Shown: one piece after another, positions 8,814 to 30,104 of the stretch
Layout of the letters: every line of letters starts with the position of its first letter
Numbering within the stretch: the first letter of the stretch is position 1
Assembly: GCA_016926735.1 (NCBI GenBank)
Contig: JAFGOA010000106.1
Coordinates: 1 to 35,656 of the forward strand
Direction: 5' to 3'
Source: Promethearchaeota archaeon
GTDB lineage: Archaea; Asgardarchaeota; Lokiarchaeia; Sigyniarchaeales; SOKP01
Length of the DNA: 35,656 nt
Notes under the pieces: model-generated
The model's database searches: none
Told to the model about the DNA's origin: nothing
Seen by the model: the letters and a program-made list of their open reading frames with translations, nothing else
Program-made: the position numbers and the translations under genes

Positions 8814-10280
8814 TTATAGGTATATTGGTCCATTAAAACTCCATGTATTATTTATTCCCATATTATCGTAGATCAATGGAGATTGCAAAATACCTATTGG
8901 TTGAGTTAGACCAGAAGGTATATAATTCATTGCATAGTTAAATGCTTCTTCTATTGATGCACTCTGATTTAATTTATACCAAAATTGATGAAAAAACCAT
9001 GACCCAGCAAATCCATCTACATTTGTATTATCACGCCAATACCATGATAAATTATCAGATGATGATGAAATTAAAATAGAATTAGTAATATCATACCAAC
9101 TATTACCTATGTTTTGATTTTCATTTAAAAAATTACCACTATAACAAAAATCGGCATTAATTATCATTCTTTTAACACTAATTTCTTTAACTAGAGTATA
9201 AAACTCTAATTCAGAGATATAACTACCATCTGCTTCGAAATGAAAAGTAGCATTATTATCTGGAAGTATAGAATTCGATCCATGATCTACCATATAGATT
9301 ATTAATTGATCTTTTGAATTAAGCTTGGAAGCAAATGATCCAGAATTTGATATATTTAATTCTTGTTTAAATCTAGTAGCATTAACATTATCATTTTCTA
9401 CATCAACAATCGCATTAGTAAGATCATTCGAAATACCATCGAGAGCATTAATATCAATAGTAGAATCTCCAGTATGATATAACATAAAAAAGATATTATC
9501 GTCTATATATCCGTGATATTTAAGCGTCCAATATACTTGTAATGCTTGAGCGGGAAATCCATCTGAATCTATACTAGTAGGAGGCGATGAAGATATAGGA
9601 GGAGGTGCTGTTTTTTCAATATTAACATCATCAAAGTATATCTGATCTCCAGCATTCATTAATCCTTCTATAGATAATACTAAAATTAGTTGAGTTATTT
9701 CATTTGTTGGTGACTGATATGCTATTCCTGTCGTATTCATGAGAATCCATATTCCTAAAGGATCAAATCGATATGATGACCAATCTGTTCGTACAATATC
9801 ATTAGTAGAATTTAACCATCGTAATCCAAGACGAACTCCTGGTGGTCCAAGTGCTGATGAAAAATGTACCCATGCAGACATGTTATATTCTGCATATTTA
9901 ATTATTGAATAAAATTTTGTCCAATTATATGTAATATCAACATTAACTACTCCATTAATTAAAGATTGGAAAATTAAGATTCCATTATTTCCATCAGGGC
10001 CTGGAATTGGTGTTAAACTCTGAAATATATTTCCGTCTGAAGGAGGATCTCTTTCCCAATTAATTTCATCATCATTAAACTTTCCATCATTTCCTTTATT
10101 AAATCCAGGTTCATCATCTTTTCTATAAAAATCATTAGCACTACAAACAATAAATGCTTTTCTTTCTCCAACTGTTTCATTTGGAGGAAATAAGATTAAT
10201 ATAATTGGAATCGGAATTGAAGCAATAATCAGAATAAAAATAATAAGAATAGTTTTCTTTTTTTTTTCCATGAATTTCAC
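8814..10280 (-). CDS. Membrane-anchored clan CD (C13 legumain/caspase-like) cysteine peptidase with an inserted carbohydrate-binding-like beta-sandwich
   Basis: N-terminal KKKK plus hydrophobic anchor. Catalytic dyad motifs LIIYMVDHGS and IINADFCYSGNF. Also GSWFFHQF, SIEEAFNYA and QSPLIYD. The insert YNMSAWV..LRWLNST..IYFDDVNI is followed by a Pro/Ser linker. GTG start; an ATG three codons later is possible. Confidence 0.75.
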   Translation of the reverse strand: MKFMEKKKKTILIIFILIIASIPIPIILILFPPNETVGERKAFIVCSANDFYRKDDEPGFNKGNDGKFNDDEINWERDPPSDGNIFQSLTPIPGPDGNNGILIFQSLINGVVNVDITYNWTKFYSIIKYAEYNMSAWVHFSSALGPPGVRLGLRWLNSTNDIVRTDWSSYRFDPLGIWILMNTTGIAYQSPTNEITQLILVLSIEGLMNAGDQIYFDDVNIEKTAPPPISSSPPTSIDSDGFPAQALQVYWTLKYHGYIDDNIFFMLYHTGDSTIDINALDGISNDLTNAIVDVENDNVNATRFKQELNISNSGSFASKLNSKDQLIIYMVDHGSNSILPDNNATFHFEADGSYISELEFYTLVKEISVKRMIINADFCYSGNFLNENQNIGNSWYDITNSILISSSSDNLSWYWRDNTNVDGFAGSWFFHQFWYKLNQSASIEEAFNYAMNYIPSGLTQPIGILQSPLIYDNMGINNTWSFNGPIYL

Positions 10281-10413
10281 TTCATAATTTTTATGTATTA
10301 CAAAACAATAAGTGAAACTGCTTTTTAAATTCTAAAGAATAATTTGCATTTTTTTTTTATAAATTGATTCAATTTATTGACAAAATGATTATTTAAAAAA
10401 AAGAGAATAAAAA

Positions 10414-12027
10414 TTAATTATTTTTTTGTTTCATAATTTTATTTAGACCATTTAGAAGAGCTAATACCGAACTCATTACTATATCTTCATGAGTTGCACT
10501 TGTTTTAACAATTTGATTTGAATCAAGATCCATAAGTTCTATTGTTACATGGCCTAAAGCTTCAGTTCCACCAGTAACTGCATCAATATTATATTCAAGT
10601 AGTTTTACTTTACTCATAGGAGCAAAACATTTGACTATTGCTTTAATAGATGCATCAACAGAACCAACTCCTACTGAAGAAGCTGTTTTTCGAATAAATG
10701 AACCATTATTTTTAATTTTTAATCTTACTGTTGAGGTTGGCGTTACAGAACCAGTTAAAACAGTTAGTTCTTCAAGTATAACATATTGTTCTTGTTTAGG
10801 AATCTCACCCATTACATCTTTAACAATTGCGAGAAAATCTTCTTCTGATACTTCATGACCTTTATCTCCAAACCTTTTGACATGATCAAATATATTTTTA
10901 AATTGCTCCTCAGTTGGTTTTAATCCAAGATCCTCTAATTTTGCTTTAAGTGCATGACCTCCTGTATGTTTTCCAAGTTTAATAGATTGCTTTACAATTT
11001 CTTCAACATTATCCGTTCTTTTAATTCCAATTAATTCTGGTGTAATAGGTTCAAAAGATCTTGCATGTTGTATCATAGCATGGGCATGTATTCCTGATTC
11101 ATGAGCAAAAGCATTTTGCCCTATTAATGGTTGAAGTCGACCAATTTTAATCTTTCCACCACAATAACTCTCAACTAATTTTGCTGTAGGAAATATTAGT
11201 CTTGTATTGATATTCATTGGTAATCCATAAAGAGCATATAAAGACATAGCAGTTTCTTCAAAAGATGCATTTCCTGCACGTTCTCCTAGCCCCATTATTG
11301 CTGTTTGAGCTTCAGATGCACCATTTTCAAATCCTGCGATTGTATTTGCTACTGCTAATCCAAAATCATTATGACAATGGACAGCTATTCTAATGTTTTT
11401 CGGTAATGCTTCATAATTTTTTTTAATAATATGACCAAAAGCCGTAGGTGTTATTGTTCCTACTGTATCGGGAATATTAACTCTTGTAGCACCACATTCT
11501 ACTGCTAAAAGATTTGCTTTTAAAAGATAATCTAAATCTGTTCTTGTTGCATCCATCGCTGAAAATAAAACTGTACTGTAATGTTCTTTAGCATAAGTAA
11601 CTTGTTCTGTAATACTGTTAAGGACATCTTCTCTTGTGCATTTCATTTGTTCTTTTATATGTAAATCTGATGTTGAAATAAAAACATGTATACTATCCAT
11701 ATCTGCCTCTATAACTTTATCTATATCAATTTTCATCATTCGAGCCAGTCCTATTATCTCAGAATTTAATCCTAATTTTGCAATATCTTTACATGCAGCA
11801 AAATCACCATCTGATGTAATAGGAAATCCCGCTTCAATAATATCTATTCCTAAATTACTAAGTGCCTGTGCAATAGAAAGCTTCTCTTCATGAGTAAAAC
11901 TAATCCCTGGTGTTTGTTCACCATCTCTTAGCGTTGTATCAAAAAAATATGCTTTTTTAGGAAGACAAAGAGTATTTCTTATCTTATCCATCATTCCTGA
12001 GACACTTATTTCATCCATTTCCACCAT
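10414..12027 (-). CDS. leuA: 2-isopropylmalate synthase (archaeal LeuA/CimA family)
   Basis: FDTTLRDGEQTPG, IEAGFP, PDTVG, HCHNDFGLAVAN, GLGERAGNA, FAHESGIH, LGKHTG, and a C-terminal regulatory domain (GVGSVDA, AVTGGTEA). Motifs alone cannot exclude citramalate synthase; the Leu-rich leader favours LeuA. Confidence 0.85.
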   Translation of the reverse strand: MVEMDEISVSGMMDKIRNTLCLPKKAYFFDTTLRDGEQTPGISFTHEEKLSIAQALSNLGIDIIEAGFPITSDGDFAACKDIAKLGLNSEIIGLARMMKIDIDKVIEADMDSIHVFISTSDLHIKEQMKCTREDVLNSITEQVTYAKEHYSTVLFSAMDATRTDLDYLLKANLLAVECGATRVNIPDTVGTITPTAFGHIIKKNYEALPKNIRIAVHCHNDFGLAVANTIAGFENGASEAQTAIMGLGERAGNASFEETAMSLYALYGLPMNINTRLIFPTAKLVESYCGGKIKIGRLQPLIGQNAFAHESGIHAHAMIQHARSFEPITPELIGIKRTDNVEEIVKQSIKLGKHTGGHALKAKLEDLGLKPTEEQFKNIFDHVKRFGDKGHEVSEEDFLAIVKDVMGEIPKQEQYVILEELTVLTGSVTPTSTVRLKIKNNGSFIRKTASSVGVGSVDASIKAIVKCFAPMSKVKLLEYNIDAVTGGTEALGHVTIELMDLDSNQIVKTSATHEDIVMSSVLALLNGLNKIMKQKNN

Positions 12028-12066
12028 TTTTTTTAACCTATTGTAAATTGTTTATTTATTCAATAA

Positions 12067-12128
12067 CCTTTTAATACCTATAAGAAAAAATTTGTTTTCT
12101 TATAAGGCATTATAAGGCGCCTTATAAT
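12067..12128 (-). promoter_or_regulatory. Attenuator-like alternative RNA hairpins in the leuA leader
   Basis: Perfect 20-bp palindrome ATTATAAGGCGCCTTATAAT (12109..12128) overlaps the uORF stop. A competing long stem (12067..12117) pairs CCTTATAATGCCTTATAAGAAAA with TTTTCTTATAGGTATTAAAAGG around loop CAAATT. Both stems use the CCTTATAAT segment. Confidence 0.65.
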
Positions 12129-12220
12129 AATAAAAGTAAACTTAAAAGTAAGCTCAAGGATAAAACGTGCTCCAAATTGAATATACTATAACGATTTTTT
12201 ATATTTTGAAGCATCTTCAT
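12122..12220 (-). CDS. Putative leucine leader peptide (uORF, 32 aa) MKMLQNIKNRYSIFNLEHVLSLSLLLSLLLLL
   Basis: Translated by hand: ATG at 12220 preceded by AAGGAATAAAAAA, TAA ending at 12122. It has 12 Leu, 10 of them in the last 13 codons, and ends 94 nt upstream of the leuA ATG on the same strand. Confidence 0.7.
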   Translation of the reverse strand: MKMLQNIKNRYSIFNLEHVLSLSLLLSLLLLL

Positions 12221-12341
12221 TTTTTTATTCCTTAAGTTTTGATAAATTATATTAATTATATACTGAAATAAATTAAAATTTTACTGAAAAGAAAAAAATA
12301 AAATTTTTAGTAATTATTTTAGTACTATTTTAAATTCTTTC

Positions 12342-13532
12342 TTAAAGTCTACTTAATAAAATTTTTCTTATATTTTCAGTACCTAATTCAATTGGATTGT
12401 TTTTCATACTTGTTTTTTCAATTATTCTGTTAAGATCCTTTTCCTTAATACTATAATTCCTTAATCGGTTAATGTTTAATTTATTAGTCCAATTTTTTAA
12501 TTTATCTAATAAAGAATTAAGATTAGTCTCTAACTTATCGTTACTAATCTCAAGAGTAGAGTCTAGGAATAAAGACCCAACTTTTGCATATTTTTTCAAA
12601 TATTTTATTCCTTCTGATTTATTATGCTTCAATTTTTCTATATTCATTTTTGTTGCTTCGTATAAAAGCGTTCCACATACAACTCCATGAGGTATTTCAA
12701 AAAATCCTCCAATTGAGGATGCTAAACCATGTATTATACCTAATCCCGCATTTGCTAATGTTATTCCTGATATTAAAGACCCATATGCCATATATGTTCT
12801 CACATTGATATCACTGGCTCCATTAGTACACGCTAATAAAATATTATCTTTCATATATGTCATTCCATTAAATGCTAGAGCATCTGTAATTGGACTTGAT
12901 ATTGATGATACATATGATTCAAGTAATTGTGTAAAAGCATCCATACCACATGCAGCTGTTACCGAAGATGGACATGATAACATCAATTCTGGATCTATAA
13001 TTGCAATATTTGGTATAAAATTATCATGTCTCAATGATTTTTTAAATCCATTTGGCCCAGTTTCACTTATTACAGCATTTTTTGTTGTTTCACTACCCGT
13101 TCCTGATGTTGTAGGAATTGCGATATATGGAATTTTTCTACCATCATGTAATTTTGTACCTACTCCTTCAAGATAATTTCTTATTGAGTCTTCTTTTGTT
13201 AACATTGCTGAAATAGCCTTTCCTCCATCAATTACACTTCCTCCTCCAATTCCTACAATAAGGTTTAGTGATGATTTCTTAAACTCCACTACAATATTAT
13301 CAATAATCTCAGGAGTTGGTTCTTTTGAAATAGAAATATATGAATAATTTAATTGTTTTTTCTCAAGATTCTTTATAATTTCTCCTAATTTTCCTGATTT
13401 GATAAGAGAATTTTTACCAATAACTAATAATAGCCTATTTCCAAATTTTGGAATAATATTCCAAAGATTTCGAAGTGTACCTGCTCCAAATTCTATATAT
13501 GGTGTACTTACAAATTTAAATCCTTTAATCAT
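12342..13532 (-). CDS. Iron-containing alcohol dehydrogenase
   Basis: IEFGAG, EPT, GIGGGSVIDGGKA, AIPTTSGTGSE, IIDPEL, GMDAFTQLLESY, NAGLGIIHGLA, IPHGVVC, NNP. SD-like GTGA upstream. Confidence 0.93.
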   Translation of the reverse strand: MIKGFKFVSTPYIEFGAGTLRNLWNIIPKFGNRLLLVIGKNSLIKSGKLGEIIKNLEKKQLNYSYISISKEPTPEIIDNIVVEFKKSSLNLIVGIGGGSVIDGGKAISAMLTKEDSIRNYLEGVGTKLHDGRKIPYIAIPTTSGTGSETTKNAVISETGPNGFKKSLRHDNFIPNIAIIDPELMLSCPSSVTAACGMDAFTQLLESYVSSISSPITDALAFNGMTYMKDNILLACTNGASDINVRTYMAYGSLISGITLANAGLGIIHGLASSIGGFFEIPHGVVCGTLLYEATKMNIEKLKHNKSEGIKYLKKYAKVGSLFLDSTLEISNDKLETNLNSLLDKLKNWTNKLNINRLRNYSIKEKDLNRIIEKTSMKNNPIELGTENIRKILLSRL

Positions 13533-26951: not shown

Positions 26952-29900
26952 TTATTCCATTTCCTTTATTTTCAAAGCCTTATATCTAAAATATTCCTCC
27001 ATTTTCACATCTGATTGTTTTAATTCTGAGATTGAGTCAGTTCCAAATTCATTTTCTATTTTAATTTTGATTTCACGTAAATTAAGATCTGTTAATAATA
27101 CATAGGAAAACCCTACTTTATTTTCAAGAGCTTTTTCAACACCTTCAATCGATTCCAATTTTTGAATACTATTCTCATGAACATCTTTAAATATTAATTC
27201 AATTACTCTCCCGCTTCCAGGTAATTGAGACAATAATTCATTGGGAGATCCAAAATCAATCATACCTCTTTGTCTACCAAAAACAACGATCTTATCACAG
27301 AATCTTGATTCTTCTGGATAATGTGATATTACTAATAATGTTGTTGATAATAATTCGTTTATTCTTGTTAAAGCAAGCCATAAATTTTCTCTAACAACTG
27401 GATCTAATCCTGAGGTTGGCTCATCTAAAATACAAAAAATGGGATTATGAATCAATGCCATAGCTATACTAACCCTTCGTTTCTGACCTCCAGAAAGAGT
27501 TTTTACATGAGAATGCATTTTATCTTCAATTTCTAATCCTCTCAACAACCGTTTTGCTCTGCTTGCTATTTGTTTTTCTGTTAATCCATATTGGAACCCA
27601 AAATAGATTAAATTTTGTAAAGTGGTAAAATTATTATATATTTTACCAAGATCTTGGGGGACATAACCAAAAATTGGTCTAAATCTCTTTTTATTTTTTC
27701 TAGCATCCAATCCATAAATTTCACATTTTCCTTTATATTTTCTCATTCCTAAAAGTGCTTTTATAAAAGTAGTTTTACCAGCACCACTCTCACCTAAAAC
27801 TCCTAAAATCTTTCCATGCTCTAATTCTAAAGAGACGCCATCTACAATTATTTTTTTTCCTGAATATATTTCTAAATTTTCACAATGAATTGCATTAAAT
27901 CTTTTAAGATATTCAATATTTAACCTATCTCTAATACCTAATTTAATTTTTACGAATTTATATAGAGACATATTAAGATAGGAAATAATATTTAACATGG
28001 TAATGAGTATTAAAACTATACCTTCTGCCAATATTAACCATAATATTAATCTTGTCCACGGTATAGGATCAAACGCTTGATCATATCTTACATCTTCTAT
28101 AATAATTAATCCATAAGGAGTATTTCTTAAATCCCCTCCAAATAAAGGATAATCTCCTACACCTCCAGTAGCATTACTAAAGCAAATACGGAACCATTTA
28201 GCTAGGTTTTGAATATTTTGAGGTTGACTCCGGTAATAATATAATCCTTTTGCTCCTAAATAATTTCCCATAAAAGAAGAGGGTAAATTAAAAAATAATG
28301 AAAGATATGGTATAAGCTCAAAACTTCCATCACTTCTTTGAGAATTTTTAAGAAATTTTATCGCAGATATTCTTGAAATAGGTTCTATGTTAAAAAAATT
28401 TAAATTCTCTAACCCATAATAGGTAGATATCACATCTGAATGAAATCCTATAAATAATGAAAACCCTCCATCGGCATTTTGACTCGAATATAACCAGTGA
28501 AATAGAGCTGTCTTATTAATTACGTTCAATGAATCTAAACTATTTAAACTGCTAACAGCCCAATATGTGCTTATAATCGTAGATATGTTAGTATTTATCA
28601 AGTTAAACATTGATGTATATGCAGAATTAAAATATGAAATTATTACATCTAAATCTTCTCCTAATTTAAATCCTCCATCTTGATTTTGAAGAGTTGTAAA
28701 ATATAGTTCGGTGTTTGTTTCATTTGGGAGATATGTTATATTATAGGGATGAAAAAGATTATATAGAAATATTGCACAATATGTTGAATATATAGAAGAA
28801 TTTCTGCTTGGTTGAGGTCCAAATCCTCCATCTTCTGAGTTATAACATAATTCTACATAATGTAAAATTTTATCCATTTTTAAGAAGGTTGTGTAGTTAC
28901 TGATATCGTATTGGTAAAGTGATAAAACACCATTATAATTTGATTGAAGATTTACTTGTCCTATCAATCCATTCATTGCCTGCCTTTCATATATCCAATT
29001 ATAATACAATATCTTTTGATTTTGATAGTCCGTTGTTGCATTCTCTAGCAAAGTTATACATTTCATTGCTGCCCACCCTGATTTTGAATCTGTATTATTT
29101 ACCTCTGAAAGAGAAGAAGAACTGAATCCTCCATTTGGTTCTTGACGATCTAATATATAATTTAAACTATAAGTTTCATTAAATGGATCAATTGTGATAT
29201 TTAAGATAGTTTGAGAAGCAATTGCATAATAGGTTGACCCTACATTAGGGACTCCTAATATCGTATCGGAATACCCTCCGGTGATATTCCTTCTACCAGT
29301 AAAATAAGATTCAAATACTATCATTTCAGAAGGGGTATAGGTATAATTTATTCCTAAATGGGCTTGAATACCAAAATGAGTGGTTTCTTGTGTAACAATT
29401 GTACTGTAGCTTGTTAAAGCATATCCTCCTTGTGCTAAATATCGTGTAGAATTGATGAAATTTGTAATATTTACATTTTGTATAAGTGAATACGCATTAA
29501 ATCTTTTAGCTATTTCAATAGCGTAATATGTTGAGATAATATCCGATTGCTCTATTAATGGATGATATCTAAAGCCCCATCCATTTTTTTCTAAAGAATT
29601 GTTAACAAAATTAATTATATTATCAATTTTCCCTTTTCTTAAAGGATCGTCTAGATATGATTTATTAAGTAAATCTAATATTTTAATTACTTTATATGTT
29701 GAATATAAACTTCCAATCCCTCCAATATCAGAAAAAGAACCATCAGAATTTTGTTTCTCAGATAAATAGTCTAAAAAAAAAAGCTGATTTTCGGAATTAA
29801 GAAAATTATTATTTATAGGATTTATAAGTTTAGTTAATTCAGATTCATATGAAATACTAGAAAAATTTACTGAATCTATTGCTCGATAACATTCCTCTAT

Positions 29901-30104
29901 TGATGGTTCTATAAAAAGACCATTATCTGGATTTTGATGAGTATATGAAAAATAAAACATGTTATCTTTATATTTTATAACTTCTTCATCTGTAAAGTAT
30001 TGTACAAATGGAAAATTAATGATCAAGTCAATAATAATTTCCCCAGAAAAGATTAATAATATTAATGTAGCATATAATACTCTTCTTTTTTTTTTTCGAT
30101 CTAT
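26952..30104 (-). CDS. Fusion protein: signal anchor, extracellular prenyltransferase/squalene-cyclase-like repeats, one TM helix and an intact ABC ATPase
   Basis: About 11 QxxDGGF...STYxA repeats, many NxS/T sequons, TM LILWLILAEGIVLILITML, GESGAGKTT, YVPQ, LSGGQKRR, ILDEPT, ISH. The ORF track starts at TTG 30026, but the frame is open to ATA 30104, which adds IDRKKKRRVLYATLILLIFSGEIIID. Confidence 0.85.
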   Translation of the reverse strand: MDRKKKRRVLYATLILLIFSGEIIIDLIINFPFVQYFTDEEVIKYKDNMFYFSYTHQNPDNGLFIEPSIEECYRAIDSVNFSSISYESELTKLINPINNNFLNSENQLFFLDYLSEKQNSDGSFSDIGGIGSLYSTYKVIKILDLLNKSYLDDPLRKGKIDNIINFVNNSLEKNGWGFRYHPLIEQSDIISTYYAIEIAKRFNAYSLIQNVNITNFINSTRYLAQGGYALTSYSTIVTQETTHFGIQAHLGINYTYTPSEMIVFESYFTGRRNITGGYSDTILGVPNVGSTYYAIASQTILNITIDPFNETYSLNYILDRQEPNGGFSSSSLSEVNNTDSKSGWAAMKCITLLENATTDYQNQKILYYNWIYERQAMNGLIGQVNLQSNYNGVLSLYQYDISNYTTFLKMDKILHYVELCYNSEDGGFGPQPSRNSSIYSTYCAIFLYNLFHPYNITYLPNETNTELYFTTLQNQDGGFKLGEDLDVIISYFNSAYTSMFNLINTNISTIISTYWAVSSLNSLDSLNVINKTALFHWLYSSQNADGGFSLFIGFHSDVISTYYGLENLNFFNIEPISRISAIKFLKNSQRSDGSFELIPYLSLFFNLPSSFMGNYLGAKGLYYYRSQPQNIQNLAKWFRICFSNATGGVGDYPLFGGDLRNTPYGLIIIEDVRYDQAFDPIPWTRLILWLILAEGIVLILITMLNIISYLNMSLYKFVKIKLGIRDRLNIEYLKRFNAIHCENLEIYSGKKIIVDGVSLELEHGKILGVLGESGAGKTTFIKALLGMRKYKGKCEIYGLDARKNKKRFRPIFGYVPQDLGKIYNNFTTLQNLIYFGFQYGLTEKQIASRAKRLLRGLEIEDKMHSHVKTLSGGQKRRVSIAMALIHNPIFCILDEPTSGLDPVVRENLWLALTRINELLSTTLLVISHYPEESRFCDKIVVFGRQRGMIDFGSPNELLSQLPGSGRVIELIFKDVHENSIQKLESIEGVEKALENKVGFSYVLLTDLNLREIKIKIENEFGTDSISELKQSDVKMEEYFRYKALKIKEME

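Follow-up and report, generated by a model that had tools for sequence, protein, structure and literature searches.

A leucine-rich leader open reading frame and a conserved hairpin upstream of leuA in Promethearchaeota

The contig JAFGOA010000106.1 of a Promethearchaeota archaeon (assembly GCA_016926735.1; 35,656 nucleotides (nt), analysed at full length and called the window below) carries a gene for 2-isopropylmalate synthase, leuA, at positions 10414–12027 of the reverse strand (537 amino acids; NF002085, 573 bits against a cut-off of 517). leuA and all elements of its leader described here lie on that strand. A short upstream open reading frame (uORF) of 32 codons (12122–12220) has its end 94 nt before the start of leuA; of its last 17 codons, 12 specify leucine, and five Leu codons directly precede the stop (12122–12124). 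Judged by its sequence, an open reading frame (ORF) with tandem Leu codons upstream of leuA is what the leader ORF of a classical attenuator would look like. Three nt after this stop begins a hairpin of 22 base pairs, here called stem B (12066–12118), which is both the minimum free energy (MFE) and the centroid structure predicted by RNAfold (−22.0 kcal/mol). Stem B and the Leu-rich leader together are a real, conserved unit with a probable regulatory role.

Conservation of the uORF was assessed upstream of leuA orthologues, which 26 of 41 relatives and 74 of the 154 genomes of the order were found to carry. A scan of metagenomes with a LeuA alignment yielded 6 close relatives, 4 of which had an upstream flank. 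The 77 upstream regions examined comprise 26 from the relatives, 4 metagenomic ones and 47 others; 70 leaders are distinct in the sense that the 108-nt segments around their uORF stops all differ from each other. Counts given for 68 leaders leave out L005 and L176, which have too little upstream sequence, and those for 67 leaders also leave out L020, which has an N-run in a duplicated assembly. A Leu-rich uORF whose end lies 76–133 nt before leuA (362 nt in L020) was found in 69 of the 77 regions, one of them, L151, being from the closed 6.0-Mb genome G042. Among the remaining regions, that of L005 is cut by the contig end, with the Leu tail and the stop still visible, and that of L029 is a miss because the gene is cut and the wrong region was read; the uORF is genuinely absent from L024–L028 and L152. 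In L020 (G039:C95), where the leader lies 362 nt from leuA, the N-run is flanked by a near-duplicate of the leuA start region, and this spacing is probably an assembly artefact.

On average, 5.3 of the final 6 sense codons, and 8.7 of the final 12, specify leucine (68 leaders), with 0.2 and 0.9 Leu in the other two frames, and in 61 of the 68 the uORF ends in a Leu codon before its stop. Since the enrichment is specific to one frame and all six Leu codons are in use, it is the coding frame of the uORF that is under selection. The leader stays with leuA although the upstream neighbours vary between loci, and what is kept across about 70 genomes of two families, while the letters of the hairpin change, is the uORF with its frame and terminal Leu run, the spacing, and stem B. 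No such uORF was found at any of 64 more distant LeuA loci (42–56% identity). The encoded peptide is hydrophobic, with partial conservation in its N-terminal part. Within the uORF of the window, a 12-nt tandem duplication (12131–12154, 92% identity) encodes Ser-Leu-Leu-Leu twice (four codons each), which suggests that the Leu run grew by duplication. The Leu tract is also the most U-rich part of the leader (48–57% U, compared with about 30% elsewhere; 67 leaders). When the whole genome was screened for uORFs with an amino-acid run followed by a fold, this leader ranked first of 219 candidates, and none of the other amino-acid-run leaders among the 219 was convincing.

Stem B comprises 5 + 8 + 9 pairs with a 1 × 1 internal loop, one bulge and two G–U pairs. 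The 233-nt leader folds with a z-score of −3.49 (1 of 200 dinucleotide shuffles was as good), and for the 75-nt segment containing stem B the z-score is −5.7. Each of the 70 distinct leaders folds into a hairpin at the position of stem B (mean z = −3.9; z < −2 in 62 of the 70); the gap between the stop and the hairpin is 0–6 nt in 68 of 68 leaders, and the hairpin is 36–61 nt long (median 55). A covariance model of the hairpin, R1, searched against the whole genome, matched at the stem B site only (E = 6.9e-8). Two near-identical strain contigs add six variant sites in stem B, of which three fall in the loop or bulge, two lead to G–U pairs and one breaks or shifts a pair; contig depth is under 5, and any single one of these variants may be an error.

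Covariation was counted on hand-specified structures, with slid partners and 500 shuffles as controls. In clade 1 (19 leaders, raw MAFFT alignment) 80.0% of the cells are paired, compared with 43–62% when the partners are slid, and both sides have changed at 11 of 19 pairs, giving 35 such cells against 15.6 in shuffles, none of the 500 being as high. Clade 2 (15 leaders) gave a similar picture: 80.7% of cells paired against 47–61% with slid partners, and 23 cells with changes on both sides against 13.2 in shuffles, again with none of 500 as high. In this second clade the basal helix is 93% paired, and the helix over the stop codon 71%. In the paired columns of stem B, G–U combinations outnumber A–C by 83 to 42, which argues that stem B acts as RNA of the leuA-sense strand. 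Beyond the MFE stem, no signal was found that the stop codon pairs with the sequence flanking stem B on its 3′ side (−0.49 kcal/mol for cognate and −0.70 kcal/mol for non-cognate combinations).

Leaders of one genus, g2 (L144–L150, L171, L174–L176, L052 and L053), have a Y-shaped stem B, built of a G+C-rich outer stem plus two small inner hairpins. After it come a short U/G run and then A's, which makes these leaders the most similar of all to a bacterial terminator; despite that look, complementarity between the uORF tail and the 5′ arm is zero in this clade.

In the window, stem B overlaps two weaker structures. Stem A is a perfect palindrome of 10 + 10 nt without spacer (12109–12128) that takes in the last Leu codons, the stop and the first copy of a tandem 9-mer. 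The two copies of this 9-mer (12100–12108 and 12110–12118; spacing 10, 100% identity) make up most of the 5′ arm of stem B. In stem A′ (12100–12127; 10 pairs, 8-nt loop) it is the second copy that is used, the stop segment 12118–12127 pairing with 12100–12109. The energy of the stem A hairpin is −4.1 kcal/mol; A′ is the MFE structure while the nascent RNA still lacks the 3′ arm (−10.6 kcal/mol, or −7.8 kcal/mol with 8 pairs in a shorter isolated segment). A and B cannot both form because 12109–12118 is common to both; taken together, A/A′ and B share 12100–12118. A′ is 11–14 kcal/mol weaker than stem B and leaves free segments where B can nucleate. A U6 tract (12085–12090) lies at the junction of the loop and the 3′ arm of stem B, two of its bases ending the loop and four beginning the arm. 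An earlier sequence-only reading of the window had described this architecture, and its description holds: the palindrome over the end of the Leu run and the stop, the choice of the stop segment between two repeat copies, the mutual exclusion of A and B, the U6 tract inside stem B and the position of the whole element directly after a Leu leader, now seen to be conserved, and upstream of leuA. Its count of about 21 pairs for stem B is likewise borne out (22 over 12066–12118, 21 within 12067–12117), with two G–U pairs in place of the one reported.

Palindromes of this kind are rare in the genome without being unique. Perfect 20-nt palindromes occur 51 times in its 3.88 Mb, compared with 28 expected (6 contain 6 or more G/C), so by itself the palindrome is weak evidence. 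It is perfect in L001 and L005 only; as read from the sequences, the matching mirrored positions number 7 of 10 in L006 and 8 of 10 in L007, both of the same genus, and it is absent in other genera, where the uORF and stem B persist. A′ is kept in L006 and L007 with one G–C to A–U double change and two one-sided changes, which suggests, from three sequences, that A′ is conserved within the genus. Complementarity between the uORF tail and the 5′ arm is significant in all three distinct members, L001, L006 and L007 (z = −3.0, −4.9 and −3.1). Across the 68 leaders, pairing of the uORF tail with the next 30 nt is at the level of chance (−1.96 kcal/mol for cognate, −1.63 for non-cognate and −1.94 for shuffled downstream sequences), and tail/arm complementarity reaches z < −2 in 7 of 68, from about four lineages (L001, L006, L007, L131, L159, L147 and L151). 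By these comparisons of sequence, A/A′ appears to be a genus-level addition of uncertain weight and not a feature of the family. The covariation in orthologous leaders that the sequence-only reading had named as a check is seen for stem B, with compensatory changes in two clades; for A/A′, tail/arm complementarity is at chance family-wide.

In leaders of another genus, g6 (L131, L159, L153, L011, L008 and L130), the TGA stop, together with the four bases after it, can pair with the start of the 5′ arm of stem B. This predicted stop-codon hairpin is a second, independently built candidate competitor of the stem B base. A tRNA-like sequence upstream of the L008 and L011 leaders contains no tRNA gene according to ARAGORN.

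Folds of the window leader were constrained by a ribosome at different codons. With RNA polymerase (RNAP) at the U6 tract, A′ forms when at least 4 codons separate the ribosomal A site from the stop, and it is blocked at 0–2 codons. Once the 3′ arm is present, stem B is the MFE structure at every ribosome position, and its five basal pairs are lost only when the last Leu codon or the stop occupies the A site. Because stem B always wins at equilibrium, A/A′ can only be a kinetic trap. The idea that ribosome position selects A or B survives in part: codon position does decide whether A′ forms in the window while the 3′ arm is unmade, and the choice disappears at equilibrium. The switch as a whole fares similarly, with A′ kept in all three members of the genus and tail/arm complementarity at chance across the 68 leaders.

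A further hairpin, P1 (12153–12236), is present in both the MFE and the centroid structure and pairs the Shine-Dalgarno and start region of the uORF with codons about 10–13 before its stop. Putative counterparts of P1 with changed letters occur in many orthologues, and the conserved N-terminal part of the uORF overlaps the P1 pairing region. In a strain variant, two adjacent changes at 12154/12155 preserve P1 pairs (contig depth under 5). On the folding model, P1 would restrict translation of the leader to ribosomes loaded before its 3′ strand is made.

The leader appears to have its own promoter. By-eye reading of the printed upstream sequences shows a putative BRE/TATA-like A/T box at 12273–12284, and a similar A4-5 T4-5 AA box lies about 50–60 nt upstream of the leader start codon in many orthologues; the ADH-like gene farther upstream (12342–13532) has its own T-run at its end, before the A/T box. 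At the other end of the leader, a Shine-Dalgarno-like motif (12036–12040) precedes leuA, and the same short motif is found 8–12 nt before the leuA start in many orthologues. The ribosome-binding site and start of leuA lie about 35–45 nt downstream of stem B. Sequestration of the leuA start was considered as a mode of control and rejected: no conserved pairing with the ribosome-binding site was found, and the predicted accessibility of the start is steady, barely shifting with ribosome position (mean 0.50 free, 0.58 and 0.60 with a ribosome; 67 leaders).

The host is archaeal. Its genome (3.88 Mb, 238 contigs, 99% complete) encodes two TBP repeats, McrA was not found in it, and the closest LeuA loci belong to metagenome-assembled genomes of Promethearchaeota/Promethearchaeia. 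The termination factor aCPSF1/FttA is encoded by a 642-amino-acid ORF on contig C188 (TIGR03675, 877 bits against a cut-off of 580), as the sequence-only reading had supposed for an archaeal host, and several beta-CASP nucleases are encoded as well. The window has a G+C content of 25.4%, and runs of T5–T12, the archaeal type of terminator, close its normal genes. leuA is solitary: T-runs at its 3′ side (10281–10413) are followed by a gene for a 488-amino-acid peptidase C13-like protein (8814–10280, reverse strand), and no leuCDB adjoins it. Elsewhere in the window, a 1024-amino-acid ORF (26952–30026, reverse strand) combines alpha-alpha toroid repeats of the prenyltransferase/terpene-cyclase type with an ABC-transporter ATPase domain, an unusual fusion, and adjoins two ABC-2 permease genes.

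We propose that the first (pioneer) ribosome on the leader would report the level of charged tRNA-Leu. When leucine is scarce, it would park on the terminal Leu codons, and its footprint of about 28 nt would cover the U-rich Leu tract and reach the stop and the base of the 5′ arm of stem B. With leucine in good supply, it would instead terminate and leave, the U-rich tract would be naked and stem B would close fully. The closed, ribosome-free state would then be OFF and the state with a stalled ribosome ON. The OFF output would most likely be premature loss of the transcript before leuA, whether through loading of aCPSF1/FttA on the exposed U-rich RNA or through termination or pausing linked to the hairpin. 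A/A′ would form only with the 3′ arm unmade and the ribosome at least 4 codons short of the stop, and would at most delay stem B; the U6 tract would be dispensable for the leader family. Since leuA stands alone without leuCDB, the leader would control the first committed step only. We judge it likely, and hold with good confidence, that the leader senses leucine by being read by a ribosome and that stem B is its conserved hairpin. The whole account, with transcript loss as its output, is tentative, its chances lying a little below even.

Several observations weigh against this account. The output step and even its sign (ON or OFF) are inferred. The predicted single-strandedness of the Leu tract is moderate (about 0.45; 67 leaders), and steric blocking alone would be leaky, because stalls with the A site at least 4 codons before the stop leave stem B untouched. 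The two covariation sets, A3 (19 leaders) and A5 (15 leaders), were picked by the analyst from the 70 for similar architecture. RNAalifold gave no consensus structure for all 70 MAFFT-aligned leaders and just 5 apical pairs for the 19, a failure that we attribute to bulges that differ between clades. R1 gave 68 matches in 75 sources at E up to 1, reverse-strand matches among them, and the model-fitted alignment A4 was left out of the counts because the near-symmetric hairpin had drawn in such matches. Termination signals are a further difficulty. The normal genes of the window end in T5–T12, yet a run of U5 or longer between the uORF stop and leuA is present in only 18 of 67 leaders (11.8 expected) and missing from the other 49. 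An intrinsic terminator, bacterial or archaeal, is not evident, because the U content of the 8 nt after stem B is 0.40 against a background of 0.32. Finally, decay protection, taken up below, is a serious rival.

In the window, the U6 tract is the sole run of U5 or longer between the uORF stop and leuA. In L006 there is a U8 in its place, and in the sister species L007 the hairpin contains no run of four or more U. Over the 67 leaders, such runs of U5 or longer sit at the edge between 3′ arm and loop (7), in the loop (3), in the 5′ arm (5) or after the stem (4). A scan of the window for terminators of bacterial type found 8, compared with 4.1 expected, and none in the leader. Because U5+ runs occur in a minority of leaders and vary in place, and the U content after stem B is low, no terminator of either type, archaeal oligo-U or bacterial hairpin-plus-U, is, on present sequences, a conserved part of the leader family. 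As a general mechanism, the exposure of a U-tract that the sequence-only reading had put forward is not supported.

Within the genus, such a mechanism might still operate, with the ribosome choosing between A/A′ and B, thereby exposing or hiding U6, and oligo-U or aCPSF1/FttA-dependent termination taking place in the leader. The overlap of A/A′ and B at 12100–12118, the gating of A′ by codon position with RNAP at U6 (formed at least 4 codons before the stop, blocked at 0–2) and the significant tail/arm complementarity of all three members, with its G–C to A–U double change, speak for such a switch; L131, L159, L147 and L151 have stop-codon hairpins of their own against the 5′ arm, U6 is the only U5+ run of the leader, L006 has its U8 at the same place, T-runs are the usual gene-end signal of the genome, and aCPSF1 is encoded. 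Set against this are complementarity at chance level over the family (−1.96 versus −1.94 kcal/mol) and zero in g2, the lack of a U run in the hairpin of L007 and of U5+ runs in 49 of 67 leaders, and the 11–14 kcal/mol by which A′ is weaker than a stem B that is free to nucleate. Moreover, stem B could hide U6 only from a later-acting factor and not from intrinsic termination, because RNAP reaches U6 before the 3′ arm exists. We regard the switch as unlikely, and take an even more sceptical view of its fullest form, in which the genus has a complete two-hairpin attenuator of bacterial style wired to the eukaryote-like termination machinery of an Asgard archaeon; a ribosome stalled in the Leu run would allow A/A′ to form and keep stem B back, and the free or paired state of U6 would settle whether RNAP with aCPSF1/FttA (the CPSF73 homologue) ends the transcript ahead of leuA. 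If true, that attenuator would be the first ribosome-mediated transcription attenuation shown in Archaea. The lack of a conserved terminator-like U tract speaks for control after transcription, where the stalled ribosome would protect the mRNA from 5′-to-3′ or endonucleolytic decay, as in leaders of the ermC type, or would alter access to the leuA start, with stem B as a decay barrier or insulator. Known stabilising leaders have such a layout, a stable hairpin beside a ribosome stalled near the 5′ end; P1 is predicted to hide the ribosome-binding site of the leader, so that few ribosomes would load, and several beta-CASP nucleases are encoded in the genome. The predicted accessibility of the leuA start, nearly constant at 0.50, 0.58 and 0.60, and the lack of a conserved pairing partner for its ribosome-binding site count against this possibility, which on balance we think improbable, serious as decay protection is as a competitor.

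Two further explanations dispense with leucine sensing by a ribosome. The 20-bp palindrome could be a DNA operator for a dimeric transcription factor, independent of uORF translation, as the sequence-only reading had allowed; a perfect 10 + 10 with a G/C core stands out in a genome of 25% GC, where 6 comparable G/C-containing 20-mers occur in 3.88 Mb. Its decay to 7 of 10 positions in L006 and 8 of 10 in L007, its absence outside the genus and its perfect form in L001 and L005 only, are not what an operator would predict; neither is its site, about 130 nt downstream of the likely promoter and within the transcribed leader, and the hairpin that it overlaps has the excess of G–U over A–C (83 to 42) expected of an RNA read from one strand. 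We give this explanation hardly any credence. Alternatively, the uORF could encode a functional small hydrophobic peptide that happens to lie beside leuA, with stem B as its 3′ end or stabiliser. The hydrophobic character of the peptide and its partly conserved N-terminal part agree with that, but the N-terminal conservation coincides with P1 pairing, the terminal Leu run and its spacing from the hairpin are the most strongly conserved features, the association with leuA persists in 69 of the 77 regions although the genes upstream differ, and no second copy was found elsewhere in the genome. A peptide function of this kind seems very unlikely.

Attenuation by leader peptides is familiar from bacteria as a textbook mechanism and depends on the coupling of transcription to translation. 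No match to a known leader was found: Rfam gave 0 matches at gathering scores over the whole window (including Leu_leader, RF00512), and with E up to 10 the segment 11950–12330 gave no sense-strand match, the opposite strand having sub-threshold matches to the greA leader (22 bits, 60 required) and tsr25 (15 bits, 63 required). The layout nevertheless resembles those of leuL (RF00512), trpL, hisL and pheL, where a short ORF close to the promoter, containing a codon run for the amino acid that the pathway makes, lies before the first pathway gene and is followed by hairpins. In this genus the likeness to classical attenuators extends to a weaker upstream hairpin that overlaps the 5′ arm of a stronger one. 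Unlike them, the archaeal leader has its Leu run at the very end of the ORF, 0–6 nt from the hairpin. In the family, a conserved antiterminator is not evident (tail/arm complementarity in 7 of 68 leaders, about four lineages), and there is no conserved G+C-rich stem with a U run (U5+ after the stem in 4 of 67), and the host here has an archaeal RNAP, TBP and aCPSF1.

A functional parallel may be the tna leader of E. coli (TnaC), in which a ribosome that stays at the end of the leader ORF covers the entry site of Rho. By analogy, a ribosome parked on the last codons of the archaeal leader would hide the adjacent RNA from a termination factor, and no antiterminator would be needed. The two would differ in signal, which here would be uncharged tRNA-Leu at sense codons and not arrest at the stop by nascent peptide and tryptophan, and in factor, which would be aCPSF1/FttA and not Rho. 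Attenuation of Rho type in leaders without terminators is also discussed in PMC1262725. The same source describes, for actinobacteria, the LEU element (Seliverstov et al. 2005, PMC1262725), in which the Leu run base-pairs to leuA's Shine-Dalgarno box at the base of a pseudoknot. The LEU element and the present leader share a Leu-codon uORF upstream of leuA and a conserved RNA structure without the parts of a classical attenuator (PMC1262725); they differ in that the archaeal leuA start is unsequestered in any predicted state and the structure is a simple hairpin after the stop. For archaeal termination at U-tracts or by aCPSF1 (FttA), (PMC8716108, PMC7515710 and PMC11616081), the known sites are gene-end terminators, of which none is known to be gated by a ribosome. 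The window is similar in that the genome has aCPSF1 and T5–T12 gene ends and the leader has a U6 tract; it is most leaders of the family, which have no U5+ run, that depart from this type.

The mechanism is probably not a copy of the E. coli attenuator, because the family appears to work without a conserved antiterminator or U tract. No published example of an archaeal leader-peptide sensor was found in the literature searched, and a 2021 paper on archaeal transcription states that attenuation or antitermination has no known example in archaea (PMC8448881). A conserved Leu leader with a covarying hairpin in Promethearchaeota is a concrete, testable case, and it raises the question of how a polymerase resembling RNAP II and a termination factor resembling CPSF73 could be tied into such control. 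The genus of the window, with its extra hairpin and U6 tract, offers a natural variant for comparison.

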